Part shown: positions 4,126 through 11,188 of the stretch, one piece after another
Layout: every line of letters begins with the position of its first letter
Numbering within the stretch: position 1 is the stretch's first letter
NCBI GenBank assembly: GCA_029552125.1
Contig: JAKPEE010000091.1
Location: 259 to 64,258, forward strand
Length of the DNA stretch: 64,000 bases
From: Bacillota bacterium
GTDB lineage: Bacteria > Bacillota > Dethiobacteria > DTU022
Direction of reading: 5' to 3'
Notes under the pieces: model-generated
Database searches by the model: none
What the model was told of the DNA's origin: nothing
What the model saw: only the letters and a program-made list of their open reading frames with translations
Program-made: the position numbers and the translations under genes

Positions 4126-4929
4126 ATGCTCATCGTCGGAGAAAAAATCAATACCAGCCGAAAAGAAGCCAGGGAAGCCGTAGAAAAAAGGGATGCCGCA
4201 TTTATCCGCAGCCTGGCCCGGCGCCAGGCCGAAGCGGGTGCCCATTACATCGACGTTAACTGCGGTACTTTCCTCAAAGAAGAACCGGAGCTCTTGAGCT
4301 GGTTGGTGCAGGAAGTGCAGCAGGAGCTGGATAACGCCCCCCTCTGCATCGACAGCCCCAACCCTGTTGCCGTGGAAGCGGCGCTAAAAGTCCATCAGGG
4401 TAAAGCCATGCTTAATTCCATTAGCGGGGAGAAGGAACGCTACGAAGCCCTTCTGCCGCTGGTGGTGCAGTACGGCTGCAAAGTGGTAGTGCTGTGCATG
4501 GATGACCAGGCCGGCATCCCGCCGGACGCGGCCACCCGTTTCAAGATCGCTTCCCGGATCATTGACGGGCTCACAGCCAAAGGAGTCAAGGTGGAAGACA
4601 TTTACGTGGACCCGTTGATTCAACCGATCAGTGTTGATACTAAAAACGGCCTTGCCGCCGCTGAAACCATCCGTATGGTCAAAGAAAGCTATCCCGGAGT
4701 GCACGCCATCTGCGGCCTCAGCAACATCTCTTTCGGTTTGCCGGAGCGCAAGCTCTTAAACCAGGCTTACCTGGTCGTCTGCGCCACCTACGGCCTGGAC
4801 GCGGTGATCCTGGACCCGGAAGATAAAAGGATCATGGCCCTGGTGTACGCCTCCGAGGCGCTGCTGAACCGGGATCCCTATTGCGGCGAGTATCTTAAGG
4901 CTTACCGCAAGGGTTTTTTGAAGATGTAG
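4126..4929 (+). CDS. Methyltetrahydrofolate:corrinoid methyltransferase (pterin-binding, MtgA/AcsE/MtrH-like)
   Basis: 267 aa. The N-terminus IVGEKINTSRK....YIDVNCG and the LNSISGE block are typical of pterin-binding methyl-THF methyltransferases. An AGGAG RBS is present. Confidence 0.8.
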   Translation: MLIVGEKINTSRKEAREAVEKRDAAFIRSLARRQAEAGAHYIDVNCGTFLKEEPELLSWLVQEVQQELDNAPLCIDSPNPVAVEAALKVHQGKAMLNSISGEKERYEALLPLVVQYGCKVVVLCMDDQAGIPPDAATRFKIASRIIDGLTAKGVKVEDIYVDPLIQPISVDTKNGLAAAETIRMVKESYPGVHAICGLSNISFGLPERKLLNQAYLVVCATYGLDAVILDPEDKRIMALVYASEALLNRDPYCGEYLKAYRKGFLKM

Positions 4930-4993
4930 GGGGAAGAAGAAGACAGAATACAGGAGACAGGAGAACCGGGTAGCAGGATTTAGACGGTCCAAA

Positions 4994-5018
4994 GAATTGA
5001 TAATCCAGAATTCAGAAG
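4994..5018. repeat. Copy of a short dispersed repeat (gaattNaNaatccagaa core) that also forms the inverted ends of the element at 33381-33564
   Basis: gaattgataatccagaa (4994-5010) matches gaattcagaatccagaa (33386-33402) at 15/17. The neighbouring gtagcagga...caaagaat strings are also shared between the two intergenic regions. Confidence 0.5.
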
Positions 5019-5042
5019 AAAAGGTTAAAACCGCGGTCCATA

Positions 5043-5071
5043 CTCCCCTTCCCCTTCGCGGGGGAGGGGAG
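5043..5071. other. Very stable G/C hairpin in an ORF-free spacer
   Basis: ctccccttcccc (5043-5054) pairs with gggggaggggag (5060-5071): 12 bp including one G:U, with a 5-nt loop. No U-tract follows, so it is not a canonical terminator. Confidence 0.5.
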
Positions 5072-5413
5072 ACTCGGGAATAGGATACAGGAAATAAGAT
5101 AAAAGCGGGAGTCAAAAATTCCTTCTCCCATGTGGAAGAGAGCTGGAGGGGCAGTAGCAGGCAGAGAAAGCAGCCAAGAGAAACGCAAGCTGTCACAATT
5201 GCCCCTTTTTCCCTTAAAGAAAGAACCCGGCGGAAGGTTTCTCATCAGTTTTCTCCTCCCTTTTCCAGGGGGGGCCGGAGAAGAATGTTAAACATGGTGT
5301 GAAGATAGCGCAGGGAGCAGGAGCGGGGCGCAGACCGCGCCTACCGGTACGGGTCGGGGCGCGGCGTGCTGCGCCCGTTGTATTAATACATTTCCAGGCC
5401 AGGTGAGAATCTT

Positions 5414-6037
5414 ATGTTGATCGAGTTAACTGTTAACCGGTTTGTGCAGGAAATTGCCTCCGCTTCTCCGGCGCCGGGAGGGGGCAGCGTTGCCGCCCTG
5501 GCCGGCGCCCAGGCGGCCGCATTAATATCAATGTACTGTAATTTGAGCCTGAACCGGGAGAAATACGGAGACGCGGTGGACAACCTGGAAGAGGCCGGGG
5601 CAAAGGCCCGGGCCCTTGCTGAAAAGTTATTGCAGGCCATAGACGAGGATACCGCCGCCTTCAACCGGGTTATGGAGGCTTACCGCCTGCCCAGGGGAAC
5701 CGCTGCAGAAAAGGCGCGGCGCAGCGAGGCCATCCAGGAGGCTTATATCATGGCGGCAAAAGTTCCTTTACATACGGCGGAGATTTGCCTGCAGCTACTG
5801 GAGCTGGTAAAAGAGGTGGCCGGCCGGGGCAACCCGGCGGCAGTGACCGACCTGGGCGTGGGCAACCTGCAGGCCCTGGCCGGGCTGACCGGTGCCTGTT
5901 ACAACGTGCAGATTAACCTCGGTTCCATCAAAGATACTAAAATCAAGGGACAACTATCGGAGCAGGTCGTCCGCATCCTTGCCTCCGGCCGCGAGATTTT
6001 TGACGGGAACCGTATCTCTATCGAGCAGAGCATTTAA
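5414..6037 (+). CDS. Formimidoyltetrahydrofolate cyclodeaminase (FTCD C-terminal-type, stand-alone)
   Basis: 207 aa. The FVQEIASASPAPGGGSVAALAGAQAAAL signature of the cyclodeaminase domain is present. Confidence 0.85.
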   Translation: MLIELTVNRFVQEIASASPAPGGGSVAALAGAQAAALISMYCNLSLNREKYGDAVDNLEEAGAKARALAEKLLQAIDEDTAAFNRVMEAYRLPRGTAAEKARRSEAIQEAYIMAAKVPLHTAEICLQLLELVKEVAGRGNPAAVTDLGVGNLQALAGLTGACYNVQINLGSIKDTKIKGQLSEQVVRILASGREIFDGNRISIEQSI

Positions 6038-6054: not shown

Positions 6055-6948
6055 ATGAAAGAAATCATTGAATGTGTCCCCAACTTCAGCGAAGGGCGCC
6101 GCCGCGAGGTGGTAGAGGCGCTGGTGCAGGAGATTAGGGGCGTAAGCGGTGTTTCTGTCCTGGATTATTCCCTGGATTATGACCACAACCGCTGTGTGAT
6201 CACCTTTGTCGGTGAAGGCGGCGCGGTGCTGGAAGGGGCTTTCCGCGGTGCACGCAAAGCGCTGGAACTGATCGACCTGCGCAAGCATAAAGGCGGCCAC
6301 CCGCGCATGGGCGCCACGGACGTGATCCCCTTCATCCCCATCGAGGGTGCTGACATGGACAGATGTATCGCCCTGGCGCGGCAACTGGGGCGGCGGATTG
6401 CCGAAGAGCTGTCTATACCGGTTTTTCTCTATGAAGAGGCCGCCACCGCGCCGGAGCGGCGCAACCTGGCTGTCCTGCGGGCCGGACAGTTCGAAGGGCT
6501 CCAGGAAGCCATGGATCGCGGCAGAATCCCCGATTTCGGCCCGGCCAGGATCCATCCCACGGCCGGGGCCACGGCGGTGGGCGCGCGCCGCCCCCTGGTG
6601 GCCTTTAATGTCAACCTGACCACGGCGGATGTAAGCGTGGCCAAAAAAATTGCCGCAGCGGTGCGCGAGCGCGGCGGCGGCCTGTGCAACGTCAAAGCCC
6701 TGGGCATCTACCTGGAAGACGAAAAGAAGGCCCAGGTAACCATGAATCTGGTTAACTGCGAGGCCACGCCCATCCACCGCGTCCTGGAGTTAATCAGGGC
6801 CGAAGCGGCCCGCTACGGCGCGGGCATAGCGGAGACTGAGGTGGTGGGCCTGATACCGCGGCAGTATCTCCTTGACGCCGCCCTGCACTACCTGCAACTC
6901 AACCGTTTCTCCCCGGACCAGATTCTCGAAAACCGGATCAACAAGTAG
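6055..6948 (+). CDS. Glutamate formimidoyltransferase
   Basis: 297 aa. The N-terminus IIECVPNFSEGRR and the block GGHPRMGATDVIPFIP are characteristic of the family. Confidence 0.9.
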   Translation: MKEIIECVPNFSEGRRREVVEALVQEIRGVSGVSVLDYSLDYDHNRCVITFVGEGGAVLEGAFRGARKALELIDLRKHKGGHPRMGATDVIPFIPIEGADMDRCIALARQLGRRIAEELSIPVFLYEEAATAPERRNLAVLRAGQFEGLQEAMDRGRIPDFGPARIHPTAGATAVGARRPLVAFNVNLTTADVSVAKKIAAAVRERGGGLCNVKALGIYLEDEKKAQVTMNLVNCEATPIHRVLELIRAEAARYGAGIAETEVVGLIPRQYLLDAALHYLQLNRFSPDQILENRINK

Positions 6949-6991
6949 GGTAAGCTCCGATCTCTTACAAGAACAATGGGAGGATGGATCG

Positions 6992-8248
6992 ATGCTGCAA
7001 GCAGACCTGTTAATAAAAAATGCGGCCCAGCTTTTAACCATGGCCGGGCATAGTAAAGAGCCCAAACGGGGTGCTGAACTGGCCGATCCCGGCATCATCA
7101 CCGGTGGGGCCGTGGCCGCCTTTGACGGCGTAATTGTAGCCGTGGGGCCGACGGAACAGGTAGAAGAGGAAGTAGAACTTTTACCCCATGCCCGGGTTTA
7201 CGACGCCTGGGGCAAGGTGGTGGCGCCCTGCTTTGTTGAGCCCCACACCCATATCGTTTTTGGCGGCAGCCGCCAGAATGAATTTGTGATGCGGCTGCAG
7301 GGGAAGAGCTACCTGGAGATCATGCAGGCCGGCGGGGGGATCGTCAATTCAGTCAAGGCCACCGCCGCCGCTTCCGATGCGGAGTTGCTGGAGACCGCCC
7401 GCCGCCGCCTCGACCACTTTGCCCGGCATGGTGTCGGCACCGTGGAGGTGAAAAGCGGTTACGGCCTTTCCGTGGCCGAAGAGCTGCGCATGCTGCGGGT
7501 GATTCGCAAACTGGACGCCCTACACCCCCTGGACCTGGTGCCCACATTCCTGGGAGCCCACGCTTTCCCGAAAGAATACCGCGGGCGGGAAGAGGAATAT
7601 GTAGATCTGGTAGTCGAAGAAATGATCCCCCGGGTGGCTGAAGAAAAGCTGGCCCGCTTTTGCGATGTTTTTTGCGATGTGGGCGTGTTCACGGTGGAGC
7701 AGTCGCGGCGCATCCTCGAGGCAGGCAAGCGTTACGGGCTGCTGCCGAAATTACATGCCGACGAGCTGGCCTCCTTCGGCGGGGCCGAGCTGGCGGCGGA
7801 AATGGGGGCCGTGTCGGCGGATCACCTGCTCAAGGCTTCACCGGAGGGAATAAAAGCCCTGGCCGAAGCCGGCGTTATCGCCGTGCTGCTGCCCGGTACG
7901 GCTTTCTTTCTTAATGAAGAATACGCACCGGCGCGGCAAATGATCGAGCAGGGCGTGGCCGTGGCCCTCTCCACGGACAGAAATCCCGGCTCTTCGCCCA
8001 CCGAGGCCACCCACCTGATCCTGACCCTGGCCTGCATCAAAATGAAAATGCTGCCGGCGGAAGCCTTATGCGCCGCCACCATTAACGCCGCCCATGCCAT
8101 CGGAATGGCTCACCGGGTCGGCAGCCTCGAAACAGGCAAGCAGGCGGATGTGGTGATTATCGACGCCCCGGACTGCAATTACATTCCCTATCACTTCGGC
8201 ACCAGCCTGGTGGAGGCGGTGTTTAAAAAAGGAAGGAAGATTAAATGA
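6992..8248 (+). CDS. hutI: Imidazolonepropionase
   Basis: ATG 6992 follows a GGGAGG RBS; the ORF-track start at 6872 is probably too long. Amidohydrolase metal motif EPHTHIVFGGSR, and the HADE / SADHL / DRNPGS blocks. The last ~8 codons are AT-rich. Confidence 0.9.
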   Translation: MLQADLLIKNAAQLLTMAGHSKEPKRGAELADPGIITGGAVAAFDGVIVAVGPTEQVEEEVELLPHARVYDAWGKVVAPCFVEPHTHIVFGGSRQNEFVMRLQGKSYLEIMQAGGGIVNSVKATAAASDAELLETARRRLDHFARHGVGTVEVKSGYGLSVAEELRMLRVIRKLDALHPLDLVPTFLGAHAFPKEYRGREEEYVDLVVEEMIPRVAEEKLARFCDVFCDVGVFTVEQSRRILEAGKRYGLLPKLHADELASFGGAELAAEMGAVSADHLLKASPEGIKALAEAGVIAVLLPGTAFFLNEEYAPARQMIEQGVAVALSTDRNPGSSPTEATHLILTLACIKMKMLPAEALCAATINAAHAIGMAHRVGSLETGKQADVVIIDAPDCNYIPYHFGTSLVEAVFKKGRKIK

Positions 8249-8359
8249 GATGATTTAATCCTATATATAACATACGTCCTGAAAAATTTTTACTTTTTAA
8301 TAAAGGAGAATTTTGGAGTTTTATAGAATAAGTTACACAAAGAATAGGAGGTAAAGATT

Positions 8360-8557
8360 ATGTCAAAGGAATATATACCATTAGTTATTAAACTTAATCT
8401 AAAAAATCCTATTCCCTATAATTCTAAAAATGTAGATGAAGTTGTAAGTAGAATTAAAAGCGTATACAATTTTAAAAGTATTGAAATTAGCGAGGATGAA
8501 GTGTCACTTAATGATTGTATTCCAATTATAAATGTTAAAATGGAAAAAAAGAAATAG
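8360..8557 (+). CDS. Hypothetical small protein (65 aa), first gene of the AT-rich cassette
   Basis: ATG is preceded by a perfect AGGAGG RBS with a 7-8 nt spacer. Codon usage matches the cassette. I recognise no motif. Confidence 0.55.
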   Translation: MSKEYIPLVIKLNLKNPIPYNSKNVDEVVSRIKSVYNFKSIEISEDEVSLNDCIPIINVKMEKKK

Positions 8558-8571
8558 AAGTAGTAGTTTTC

Positions 8572-9012
8572 ATGTCAGAACGTCAAAATTACATGGAGAA
8601 AATTACTAATATTTTAGAATTAATTGATGAATCAATATGGGAAAAAAGCAACGTAATTCAAAATATGGAAATTATAAGTATGATAAGCGGGCTAGAAAAT
8701 ACAGATATTCTGGAATTTTTTTTAGATACTAGAGATTATTCACAATTTGGTAATATTATCAAATCTACTTTGCGCTTTGAAGTTGAGATTGATAAGAAAG
8801 TGTTATCATTTTTATTTAATTATACTAATGAAACCTCCGCATTAACAAATATTGGCATAAATTATGACTCATTTTTTCATAATAAGGAAGAATTTTGCAA
8901 ACAAACGAACGAACTGAGGCAATATCTAGAAGATAAGATGAGATTATATTTAACTACAGTATGCAAAGGAAACTATCAATTTATAAATCTCGATGAGATA
9001 AAAATAAAATAA
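8572..9012 (+). CDS. Hypothetical acidic protein (146 aa), second gene of the AT-rich cassette
   Basis: It starts 14 nt after the gene A stop, on the same strand and with the same composition. No recognisable motif, and the RBS is weak. Confidence 0.55.
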   Translation: MSERQNYMEKITNILELIDESIWEKSNVIQNMEIISMISGLENTDILEFFLDTRDYSQFGNIIKSTLRFEVEIDKKVLSFLFNYTNETSALTNIGINYDSFFHNKEEFCKQTNELRQYLEDKMRLYLTTVCKGNYQFINLDEIKIK

Positions 9013-9025
9013 AGGGAGATTTGAC

Positions 9026-9847
9026 GTGAATAACGCTAAATCTACGTATCTTAATTGGAATCTGATAGATATGACATTAGATCGGGCTTTAATGAATAAT
9101 CAGATGCCCGATTGTTCGGATATTCAAAGAATTGAACGATCAATCCAAAAAATTAACATGTTAACTACAAGTTTGTACTTTAATGTACAAGCTGTCCAAA
9201 AAGAAATAAATGTTGACGTTGATTCTTTAAAAGCCTTAGGAATCAGTTGTGAATATTTACCTGAAATCGTAAAAATGCTTCAAGATAAACAAAATAGATG
9301 TAAAGTAAATGTCATAGAGCAGCCAAATCATAATAGAATATATAAATATATAAAAGCAGGTTTTACAATTATGGCTGGATATTATTCAAATTCACCTTTG
9401 GTTCAAATAAATGATGTTAAACATGCATGGAATAATTTTATTGAAACTTCAACCTTAAAATTATTTATTATATTTTTTATGTCTTTACTTTCATTAATAT
9501 TTGGGGGCCTTACTGCTGTTAATTGGGCATTAATAGTAACGACAATTGTACATTTTATAACACGATGTATTGCAAATAAGTATAGAAATAGAGATGATTA
9601 TATTCATATTTCAAGAAACATACAATTGCTAATTTTCCCATATTTATTACTTGCCATTGCTAATTGTTTAAATCCTTTTGTTTCTCTTGAAGGCCTGCCA
9701 GACAATACACTTGTAACTATAATAACGATTGGAATAATATATTCAGAAATTAAAGGAATTGTAGAAAATGCAAAAATAGCTAATTTACCAGTACCAACAA
9801 TATTAGAATGGCTTGTTGGAATAACAAAGAAAAATGAAAATCTCTAA
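9026..9847 (+). CDS. Membrane protein with an unknown ~140-aa N-terminal soluble domain fused to a TcdE/phage-holin (Phage_holin_4_1-like) 4-TM domain
   Basis: GTG 9026 lies 8 nt after an AGGGAG RBS and 13 nt after the gene B stop. There are four hydrophobic helices (about aa 145-247). The C-terminal IYSEIKGIVENAKIANLPVPTILEWL resembles the Y-E-x-x-S-I-L-x-N...GLPVP signature I recall from TcdE and related holins. Confidence 0.65.
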   Translation: MNNAKSTYLNWNLIDMTLDRALMNNQMPDCSDIQRIERSIQKINMLTTSLYFNVQAVQKEINVDVDSLKALGISCEYLPEIVKMLQDKQNRCKVNVIEQPNHNRIYKYIKAGFTIMAGYYSNSPLVQINDVKHAWNNFIETSTLKLFIIFFMSLLSLIFGGLTAVNWALIVTTIVHFITRCIANKYRNRDDYIHISRNIQLLIFPYLLLAIANCLNPFVSLEGLPDNTLVTIITIGIIYSEIKGIVENAKIANLPVPTILEWLVGITKKNENL

Positions 9848-10410
9848 GCATTTGAGTGTAATGTCTCCTCCAGGTGGCGTTTGATCTGTTGCAGCAGAAC
9901 GTTAAATTCCCGGTTTAGGGCATTCTTTGCTTGAAGCCATTGTGTGGTTCGTTCAAGATTAATCGCGGCGACGGCGCTGCCGCTGATGCCGCTATCTTTT
10001 AACAGGGCCTCGCTGCCTGCCTGTTCCAGCCGGGCCCGTTCTTTTTCCAGTTGCTCCCGGTATGCCCGGCATACTTCCTGCAGGGCTGCGCCGGCTTCTC
10101 CGCTTAGCAGTTCAGAGGCAAGTTTTTGATACGCTGCCAGCACCTGCTCGCAGGTATCGGGGTTCAATCCGGCGGTGATTCCTTGTAAAAGCGACTTTTT
10201 CGCGGCCGGGAGCGCGGCGGCAGGATAGTTGCCGATGCTTTCCGCCAGCCGCCCCAGCGTTAATTTATTATCCAGGTACGAAGCGGCCAGCAGCGCCGCC
10301 GCTCTGGTGTACTGGGCAAAAGCGAAGTCCTCCGGGTTGCTGTCAACGCTGCCTGCCAGTTTGTCTGCCCGCTCCAGGGCCAGCTCCCTGGCCGATTTTA
10401 TTTTTCCCAT
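9844..10410 (-). CDS. Conserved hypothetical protein (188 aa, alpha-helical)
   Basis: ATG 10410 (MGKIKSARELALERAD...) has a GAGGTGA RBS. The longer track ORF (to 10503) lacks an RBS. Its stop codon overlaps the stop codon of the convergent 9026-9847 gene. Confidence 0.7.
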   Translation of the reverse strand: MGKIKSARELALERADKLAGSVDSNPEDFAFAQYTRAAALLAASYLDNKLTLGRLAESIGNYPAAALPAAKKSLLQGITAGLNPDTCEQVLAAYQKLASELLSGEAGAALQEVCRAYREQLEKERARLEQAGSEALLKDSGISGSAVAAINLERTTQWLQAKNALNREFNVLLQQIKRHLEETLHSNA

Positions 10411-10492
10411 AATTTGCTCACCTCGCTTGTATCCTGCTATAATCATAACATAAAAAACGGCAGTAATGCTTAAATATAGAGGAGGCTGCAGC

Positions 10493-11188
10493 ATGCGCAT
10501 CACCGAAAAAATCTACGCCTATCCCTGGCGGGGGCGGGGCAACAACTGCAACAGTTACCTGTTTAAAGGGGAAATGACGGTCCTTTTTGATCCCGGGCAT
10601 ATTTACAATGAATTCGGGGAAAGTGGTTTTGAACTGCTGGTGCGGCAACTGGCTGCCGACGGTTTTGCGCTGGAAGACGTGGACCTGATCCTGTGCACCC
10701 ACGGCCATCCCGACCACATGGAAGCGGCGGGCCTGGCCCGGGAAAAAAGCGGGGCCCGTTTTGCCCTGCACCGGCAGGACGAGTTTATCCTGGAGGCGCT
10801 GGGACAGCGTTATGCCGCCGCGGCAGGCCAGGAACTGCCCGACCTGAAGCCCGATTTTTATCTGCAGGAGGGGGATCTGGAACTGGGCAAGGGAAAAACG
10901 GATTTAATCCGTGTCATCCATACGCCCGGCCATACGCCCGGATCAGTCTGTTTTTACCTGCCGGATCAAAAAGCCCTGATCAGTGGCGACACTGTTTTCG
11001 AAAACAGCATCGGCCGCTCCGACCTGCCCGGCGGCAATCTGGAGGAGCTGGAGCAAAGTGTGGCCAGGCTGGCCGCCATGGAAGCGGTGGAGCTTTTATT
11101 GCCCGGGCATATGGGTTTTGTTTCGGGATCGGACCATGTCCGCCGCAATTTTGCCCGCATCCGGAGGGTTTTTTTCGGTGCGATCTAA
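10493..11188 (+). CDS. MBL-fold metallo-hydrolase
   Basis: HGHPDH metal motif plus the HTPGHTPGS block. ATG 10493 follows a GAGGAGG RBS. Confidence 0.85.
   Translation: MRITEKIYAYPWRGRGNNCNSYLFKGEMTVLFDPGHIYNEFGESGFELLVRQLAADGFALEDVDLILCTHGHPDHMEAAGLAREKSGARFALHRQDEFILEALGQRYAAAAGQELPDLKPDFYLQEGDLELGKGKTDLIRVIHTPGHTPGSVCFYLPDQKALISGDTVFENSIGRSDLPGGNLEELEQSVARLAAMEAVELLLPGHMGFVSGSDHVRRNFARIRRVFFGAI

Follow-up and report, generated by a model that had tools for sequence, protein, structure and literature searches.

What does a holin-family membrane protein do when half of it lies outside the membrane domain and no lysis gene is found nearby? The question is raised by gene B, which encodes a 273-residue protein in a 64,000-nucleotide (nt) stretch of DNA (the window) from a Bacillota bacterium of the Dethiobacteria (contig JAKPEE010000091.1, positions 259 to 64,258). 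Gene B is the second member of a two-gene cassette whose first member, here called gene A, is broken in the window. At a probability of about 0.42, the reading that we favour is that B supplies the membrane part of an A-B cassette that was acquired horizontally, derives from a phage holin and no longer belongs to a lysis cassette, and that B would act as a Rex-like membrane effector with a long antiholin-like isoform.

Holin domain and N-terminal extension of protein B

Both by hidden Markov model (HMM) and by fold, B is a member of Pfam family PF05105 (Phage_holin_4_1), with a canonical holin bundle and a long extra N-terminal region. The Pfam profile aligns with residues 154-266 over positions 2-113 of its 116 (E = 1.7e-7, 31.8 bits against a curated cut-off of 22.2), and it also matches 30 of the 31 members of the B family. 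When the AlphaFold2 model of B was compared with viral models by Foldseek, the top matches were phage holins of 119-190 residues, with probabilities of up to 1.00, which align with the C-terminal half only. The model was built on 31 relatives and has a mean predicted local distance difference test score (pLDDT) of 76.5. Hydropathy and the model agree on four membrane helices at approximately 143-159, 164-186, 195-215 and 228-251 (pLDDT 80-97), and the model places an amphipathic juxtamembrane helix (128-140) ahead of them. A compact bundle of membrane helices followed by a charged cytoplasmic C-terminal tail, as in Phage_holin_4_1, is thus found in B. From the arginine- and lysine-rich loop at 180-197 and the positive-inside rule, both termini are probably cytoplasmic. 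Several other searches with B gave nothing: TIGR01593, the NCBIfam model for toxin secretion/phage lysis holins, was not significant (E = 0.26, 11.3 bits against a cut-off of 40.2), the PHROG holin families did not match, Foldseek found no PDB structure at E <= 0.001, and a PDB sequence-profile search was empty.

B nevertheless lacks two features that define working lysis holins, namely small size and, at the window locus, adjacency to a lysin. Lysis holins are about 120-190 residues long and consist almost entirely of membrane domain, a description that full-length B does not fit and that could be satisfied solely by a hypothetical 158-residue product starting at Met116. No endolysin adjoins B in the window, although some of its relatives do follow one, of the Amidase_3 type.

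The region ahead of the holin domain spans approximately 115-140 residues and is modelled as a helical hairpin followed by a disordered linker (95-125). The hairpin, at residues 31-94, is predicted with confidence (pLDDT of about 77-87 for residues 31-90). Scans of the extension against Pfam, NCBIfam, PHROG and PADLOC found no match. That it is coding sequence is indicated by the 115 codons 5' of Met116: when this 29% G+C DNA is shuffled at matched composition, they remain free of stops in only about 1e-5 of cases, while the other five frames carry 4-17 stops over the same interval. The GTG start codon is preceded by the Shine-Dalgarno (SD) sequence AGGGAG, with an anti-SD duplex energy of -8.6 kcal/mol. 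A profile of the N-termini of other members aligns weakly but colinearly with residues 31-112 of B, at 9.4 bits, a score reached by 4 of 1000 shuffles, and the first residues of B, MNNAK, resemble the VNNSAK of the homologue in a Halanaerobiales metagenome-assembled genome (MAG), locus L001. Conservation is very poor and divergence fast, such that the N-terminus as sole query detects one relative. The extension is real, is under selection as coding sequence and is found throughout the family; in structure it is, as modelled, a fast-diverging helical hairpin and disordered linker with no structural relative.

These results settle much of what the initial annotation had proposed for B from the sequence. 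Its placing of the holin bundle in the C-terminal half is confirmed by the Pfam alignment, by the viral holins and by the predicted topology, and its caution that this half might resemble no holin family was answered by the PF05105 match, above the cut-off; the corresponding TIGRFAM model stayed below its own. The signature tail that it singled out, IYSEIKGIVENAKIANLPVPTILEWL, does stand at the C-terminal end, but as part of the Pfam-matched domain and not as a separate element. A region of about 140 residues in front of the bundle is, as the annotation described it, devoid of recognisable motifs. The suggestion that this region is a sensor gained nothing in its favour; the modelled hairpin and linker have no relative in the PDB by Foldseek.

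The B family is rare and uncharacterised, and its members share the architecture of a holin bundle with a long cytoplasmic extension. HMMER, run exhaustively over 1.84 billion representative proteins, recovered 32 relatives (about 30 clusters, in Bacillota), nearly all of 255-300 residues and two of 368-380; a word-indexed protein search returned just two or three per query. Many relatives align from query residue 22-35 onward, and 100-140 upstream codons have been retained in about 30 independent clusters. Two members, from Brevibacillus brevis and Bacillus cereus, are labelled by NCBI only as 'phage holin family protein', and our literature searches found no characterised member. With three family members as tblastn queries (E 1e-3), no representative was found among 50,697 INPHARED phage genomes or 72,556 PLSDB plasmids. 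One IMG/VR contig alone carries the family, and a second IMG/VR scan with another B subfamily returned nothing. Most relatives end in a conserved tail, an acidic residue followed by x-x-P-P-[FL] (D-x-x-P-P-[FL]). The HMMER search also brought up a 2743-residue protein (P0031) with five separate stretches matching B at about 98-182, that is, the juxtamembrane helix and the first two membrane helices (E = 6.5e-7); in this possibly giant protein, holin-like hairpins may be repeated.

Partner gene A and the genomic setting of the pair

Intact gene A is a single open reading frame (ORF) of 214-215 residues immediately 5' of the B homologue in locus L001 and in a Bacillota MAG (L005), and the two intact proteins are homologous (E = 2e-16). 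A profile search with the A alignment recovers the 146-residue fragment of the window together with intact proteins of 204 and 214 residues. In the window the gene is split at the junction ATG GAA AAA AAG AAA TAG, where either an additional A or a -1 slip at the heptamer A_AAA_AAG restores a 217-residue ORF that can be aligned through the junction. A heptamer of this form is the classic -1 slippery site, known from dnaX. The sole hairpin 3' of it is modest (-7.4 kcal/mol). Since relatives have an uninterrupted gene A and this hairpin is weak, programmed -1 frameshifting was set aside, and a homopolymer frameshift mutation is the likelier reading of the sequence; residual slippage at the heptamer is possible. 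An assembly error at the A7 tract was also rejected, because three independent assemblies are identical there, so that the same frameshift is seen in four assemblies including the window. With its A gene frameshifted, the window cassette is probably impaired or dependent on slippage. The initial annotation had linked B to two upstream proteins of 65 and 146 residues; the coupling holds, but these are two halves of one frameshifted gene.

Protein A itself offers few clues. No Pfam, NCBIfam, PHROG or PADLOC model matches it, searches for helix-turn-helix, ribbon-helix-helix (RHH) or AbrB domains were negative, and a PDB profile search was marginal. There is no conserved catalytic signature (only three columns are invariant), and no signal peptide is apparent in the sequences. 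Locus L001 presents the reverse of the window, with A intact and B interrupted by an in-frame TAA at codon 41. An alternative genetic code was considered for this B homologue and discarded, since the codon in question is TAA and translation table 11 fits the other genes. The homologue occupies positions 4340-5155 of DAOVRZ010000129.1, where neighbouring HepT-like, AAA_23 and PAF-AH genes also look fragmented.

In the window the cassette occupies a 1.6 kb islet of approximately 25-31% G+C in a chromosome of approximately 57-67% G+C. The islet is foreign and was acquired horizontally. It lies between two convergent genes, both of which face it with their 3' ends; it starts directly past the stop codon of an imidazolonepropionase-type amidohydrolase gene and ends at the stop of an ORF for a 219-residue protein of no recognised family. 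For about 9 kb on each side only metabolic genes are present, including those for molybdo-flavoprotein subunits, an MttB-type methyltransferase, a formiminotransferase, a cyclodeaminase and an MBL hydrolase, with no phage or lysis gene among them. Three other metagenome assemblies contain the identical islet with the same flanks (no mismatch in the 1488 nt compared, 8360-9847), and therefore the islet is not an assembly artefact. Its ends carry no flanking direct or inverted repeats and no integrase gene; no terminator was found within it, and shuffled sequence contains promoter-like sites at least as often. Rfam scans of the islet and its vicinity found no RNA family, and the window contains no tRNA gene.

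Context information is available for about 11 loci only. Among the 10 distinct contexts with readable upstream DNA, nine have an ORF of 191-229 residues (incomplete in L013) directly 5' of B, often abutting or overlapping it, and in six of the 10 this upstream ORF is demonstrably homologous to gene A. The tenth context is that of Bacillus cereus (L012, JARXKI010000001.1), in which a 142-residue ORF takes the place of A, and this ORF and B lie on the repressor strand between a cI-like repressor gene and genes for an ImmA-type peptidase and a serine integrase. The 142-residue ORF (5569-5997) is unlike gene A and shows a weak match to DUF6941 (E = 1.3e-4, below the cut-off); the B homologue there, at 380 residues, has an N-terminal region that is longer still.

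Other contexts are phage-derived or defence-like. On the viral contig (L007, IMG/VR UViG_3300002986_000013), an Amidase_3-SPOR endolysin gene is followed by a gene for a 162-residue membrane protein, the A-B pair and a gene for a 281-residue protein. The 162-residue protein beside the lysin has an N-terminal membrane segment and is another candidate holin. The 281-residue protein (6633-7478), directly 3' of A-B, matches nothing in Pfam, NCBIfam or PADLOC and has an R-x4-H motif (RSKSVH), from which we would tentatively read it as HEPN-like. In Brevibacillus brevis (L014-L016) A and B are intact within a decayed prophage in which the recombinase gene is fragmented and the adjacent Amidase_3 gene is split, in L014 (9123-11421 of JBHUHH010000009.1) into pieces of 92 and 101 residues; a separate, canonical 152-residue PF05105 holin with an Amidase_2 lysin is encoded 4 kb upstream of the pair. 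Protein A of B. brevis was found on 15 contigs. The pair stands at the edge of a phage-like element in L017, and the neighbours in L001 and L005 include HepT-like, AAA_23, amidoligase and TM-SAVED-like genes. Slots beside a repressor or integrase gene and downstream of a lysin gene are well-known sites for prophage accessory and exclusion genes.

Table 1. Features of the A-B islet in the window (all coordinates in the window).
Feature	Position	Strand	Basis or detail
A+T-rich islet carrying the two-gene cassette A-B	8249..9847	+	Composition profile; comparison with other assemblies
5' fragment of gene A, 65 residues, TAG just past poly-A tract	8360..8557	+	BLASTP against residues 1-57 of L001 gene A, E = 2e-7
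A_AAA_AAG heptamer in A7 run, frame-change site of gene A	8545..8551	+	Reconstruction; three-frame translation
3' fragment of gene A, 146-residue ORF (frame open from 8551)	8572..9012	+	BLASTP against residues 99-199 of L001 gene A, E = 2e-5
Shine-Dalgarno sequence AGGGAG of gene B	9013..9018	+	7 nt 5' of GTG start, 1 nt past gene A stop
Gene B, 273-residue holin-family membrane protein with N-terminal extension	9026..9847	+	ORF, Pfam, family, AlphaFold2
N-terminal cytoplasmic extension, residues 1-115	9026..9370	+	Predicted helices 6-23, 31-57, 65-94 and start of disordered linker (AlphaFold2)
Candidate internal start: GCAGG SD-like motif, 10-nt spacer, ATG of Met116	9356..9373	+	Would give 158-residue product
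Four-helix membrane bundle (residues 143-251) and cytoplasmic tail	9452..9823	+	Pfam, hydropathy, AlphaFold2, Foldseek

Two observations concern the surroundings of the islet and not the cassette. The convergent 219-residue ORF (9844-10503, minus strand) matches no Pfam or NCBIfam model; its last codons lie at the islet edge, with a 2-nt overlap between its TAG stop (9844-9846) and the TAA of gene B (9845-9847), and the insertion may have remodelled its C-terminus. Further along, positions 38000-64000 have a G+C content of about 40-50%, compared with about 57-62% in the first 37 kb, and may represent a second, much larger acquired region.

Candidate internal start at Met116

A start codon within gene B is suggested by a methionine column, M116 in the window, that is kept in most family members inside an otherwise unconserved linker of low pLDDT. 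We examined the 10 loci for which DNA was available. In each of them the ATG at this column has the best predicted anti-SD pairing among all in-frame ATGs (-4.4 to -10.8 kcal/mol), typical SD-like motifs being AAGGTGGG, AAGGAAGG and AAAGGGGGAG, located 5-9 nt upstream. Measured against all other codon positions in the same genes, the internal pairing has a combined P of 9e-9 (Fisher's method). The lysine codon from which the AAGG core is formed reads AAG in seven of nine loci, compared with a baseline of 21.5% in these A+T-rich genes (P = 5e-4), a bias that points to selection at the nucleotide level. Initiation at this ATG would yield products of 154-169 residues (158 in the window), which is the canonical holin size.

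A predicted internal Shine-Dalgarno-plus-ATG signal is thus a feature of the family. The initial annotation had pictured a single pore gated by its N-terminal domain, and had named translation from an internal codon just before the membrane region as a finding that would count against this. Such a start does have real support in the sequences, with an SD-like motif at all 10 loci, that of Met116 in the window among them. Two isoforms of B are likelier than a single gated protein.

Proposed mechanism and alternative explanations

According to the reading that we favour, gene B would give rise to two products, the full-length protein and the form initiated at Met116. The short form would be the pore-former. 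The long form, which shares its membrane domain, would co-assemble with it and restrain it as a greatly enlarged antiholin, after the model of TcdE-M1 relative to TcdE-M25/M27 and of lambda S107 relative to S105. The cytoplasmic extension of B would be held or released by the cytoplasmic partner A, and a trigger, most plausibly phage infection, would lift the restraint, whereupon the membrane would be permeabilised and the infection aborted, as in RexA/RexB. The persistence of an intact B beside a broken A, in a population seen in at least four assemblies, fits an A protein that serves as an activator or sensor like RexA, acting on the B extension, better than it fits an antitoxin. Counted in favour of a role outside lysis are the islet of the window, the B. 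cereus locus, L001 and L005, the viral contig and the B. brevis prophage. With these contexts, Rex-like abortive infection or exclusion would be the most likely role of the pair, at somewhat less than even odds.

A number of observations weigh against this interpretation. No PADLOC model (PADLOC-DB v2) matches A or B, even when intact A proteins and divergent B homologues are included. The AlphaFold model of A has a pLDDT of 61, for which reason no fold is assigned, and its Foldseek matches are marginal and partial (AdoMetDC over about 90 residues at E = 8e-3, and IS200-type transposases). In four contexts the upstream partner has no detectable homology to A. The pair lies directly past an Amidase_3 endolysin gene in at least two independent elements, an arrangement that would also fit a role in lysis. 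With A frameshifted in the window and B stopped in L001, both cassettes may simply be decaying, and the window protein ends in KKNENL, without the D-x-x-P-P-[FL] tail of most relatives. As for the internal start, the motif in the window is among the weaker ones (-5.6 kcal/mol over the longer spacer, with AAA as the lysine codon), and a K-[VA]-G-x-x-M motif conserved for protein reasons could in part underlie the signal.

The alternative that we take most seriously, although we consider it unlikely, is that this is an ordinary prophage lysis gene: B would be a holin with a long antiholin isoform of the kind made by temperate Bacillota phages, A a lysis accessory or regulator, and the window copy a stranded, decaying remnant that no longer functions. 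The holin family to which B belongs is a genuine one, holins are classically timed by dual starts (PMC6200909), and both the endolysins upstream of the pair on the viral contig and in the Brevibacillus element and the lesions in the window and L001 would be accommodated. In locus L009, moreover, B is followed by a gene for a protein with a Cu_amine_oxidN1 domain, and the Amidase_2 lysin of L014 gave a weak hit to this same domain. The surroundings of B are harder to reconcile with this explanation. A lysis protein concerned with timing alone is, as the initial annotation had anticipated, unlikely at the window locus, because the surrounding 9 kb or so contain neither an endolysin nor a phage gene. 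The B. cereus copy lies within the lysogeny module and shares its strand with the repressor; B. brevis keeps A-B intact while the Amidase_3 gene is split and a canonical holin-lysin pair is present nearby; the viral contig has another candidate holin beside its lysin; and the family was met in none of the sequenced phages and plasmids searched and on only one IMG/VR contig.

It is improbable that the extension is an annotation artefact, with only the product from Met116 made and the 115 upstream codons not constituting a functional domain. The strength of the internal signal across the family, the very poor conservation of the N-terminal region and the inconsistency of gene callers, whose choices of start give proteins of 258, 229 and 273 residues, would be expected in that case. 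The open frame, with its many stops in the other frames, the good ribosome-binding site at the GTG directly past the gene A stop, the retention of 100-140 upstream codons by about 30 clusters, the colinear N-terminal homology and the confidently modelled hairpin all argue otherwise. Still less probable is a toxin-antitoxin module that stabilises mobile elements, with B as a membrane toxin and A as its protein antitoxin. The compact operon of abutting or overlapping ORFs in mobile or foreign DNA has the appearance of such an addiction module, and small holin-like membrane toxins are known in toxin-antitoxin systems (PMC3632139), but a classical pair should not tolerate a frameshifted A beside an intact B, which is the state of four assemblies, and a type II system is not what is seen here. 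Protein A is also encoded upstream of B and is neither small nor DNA-binding-like, having no match to helix-turn-helix, RHH or AbrB models. We give least credence to non-lytic export of the TcdE type, in which B would release cytoplasmic cargo, possibly A, without lysis. B shares its Pfam family with TcdE, which likewise acquired an N-terminal extension once it had left a phage lysis cassette (PMC6200909), and A is always co-encoded and lacks a signal peptide; no toxin- or enzyme-like cargo was found nearby, however, A has no conserved catalytic signature, and the contexts are those of prophage accessory or defence-like genes, not virulence loci.

Comparison with characterised systems places the favoured reading between several precedents. 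TcdE of Clostridioides difficile is translated from M1, M25 and M27; its shortest form is lytic, and its 24-residue N-terminal extension inhibits lysis (PMC6200909). B resembles it in Pfam family and in standing outside a functional lysis cassette, and would share with it the use of alternative in-frame starts. It differs in having an extension of about 115 residues with a modelled hairpin, a conserved upstream partner gene and no toxin gene or endolysin remnant nearby; nor does it match TIGR01593 (E = 0.26) or have a close relative in sequenced phages. Two in-frame starts in one gene, giving a pore-former and a longer inhibitory form, would also liken B to lambda S105/S107 (for the principle, see PMC6200909). 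The starts in B are 115 codons apart and not two, its long form would add a folded domain and not one or two charged residues, and no endolysin adjoins it in the window.

The likeness to lambda RexA/RexB is by analogy only, as no homology to the Rex proteins and no match to any PADLOC model was detected for A or B, and B is holin-derived with a large cytoplasmic domain. It consists in a two-gene operon that encodes first a cytoplasmic protein and then a multi-pass membrane effector, seen here as the pair in nine of 10 contexts, and in the position of the B. cereus relative in a cI-like repressor operon, comparable to that of rexAB in the prophage repressor operon of lambda (PMC12894663). Loss of the partner would also leave the membrane protein harmless, as expected if the partner is an activator, and this is how an intact B beside a broken A may be understood. 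AbiZ of Lactococcus, a membrane-associated protein active against phages, is proposed to act through the holin pathway and to permeabilise or lyse the cell prematurely (PMC13064643). It can be likened to B by description, but is a single gene thought to cooperate with the holin of the phage itself.

The usual view of holins is that of minimal lysis proteins that time themselves; to the holin bundle the B family adds a conserved cytoplasmic extension, a conserved partner gene and probably a second start. Because its partner is broken, the window copy is of limited immediate importance. Should B prove to be an ordinary lysis gene, its architecture would still be unusual for the regulation of a holin. 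That A-B constitutes an undescribed two-gene class of abortive-infection or superinfection-exclusion systems in Bacillota, in which the hairpin and A together sense infection and release the pore of a two-isoform domesticated holin, is a bolder proposal that we put forward as doubtful but possible. If the favoured reading is true, the pair would be a new candidate membrane-acting defence system that is in no catalogue, a phage lysis protein would have been turned into a regulated suicide or exclusion effector, and the dual-start holin/antiholin principle of lambda S and TcdE would extend to a whole regulatory domain.

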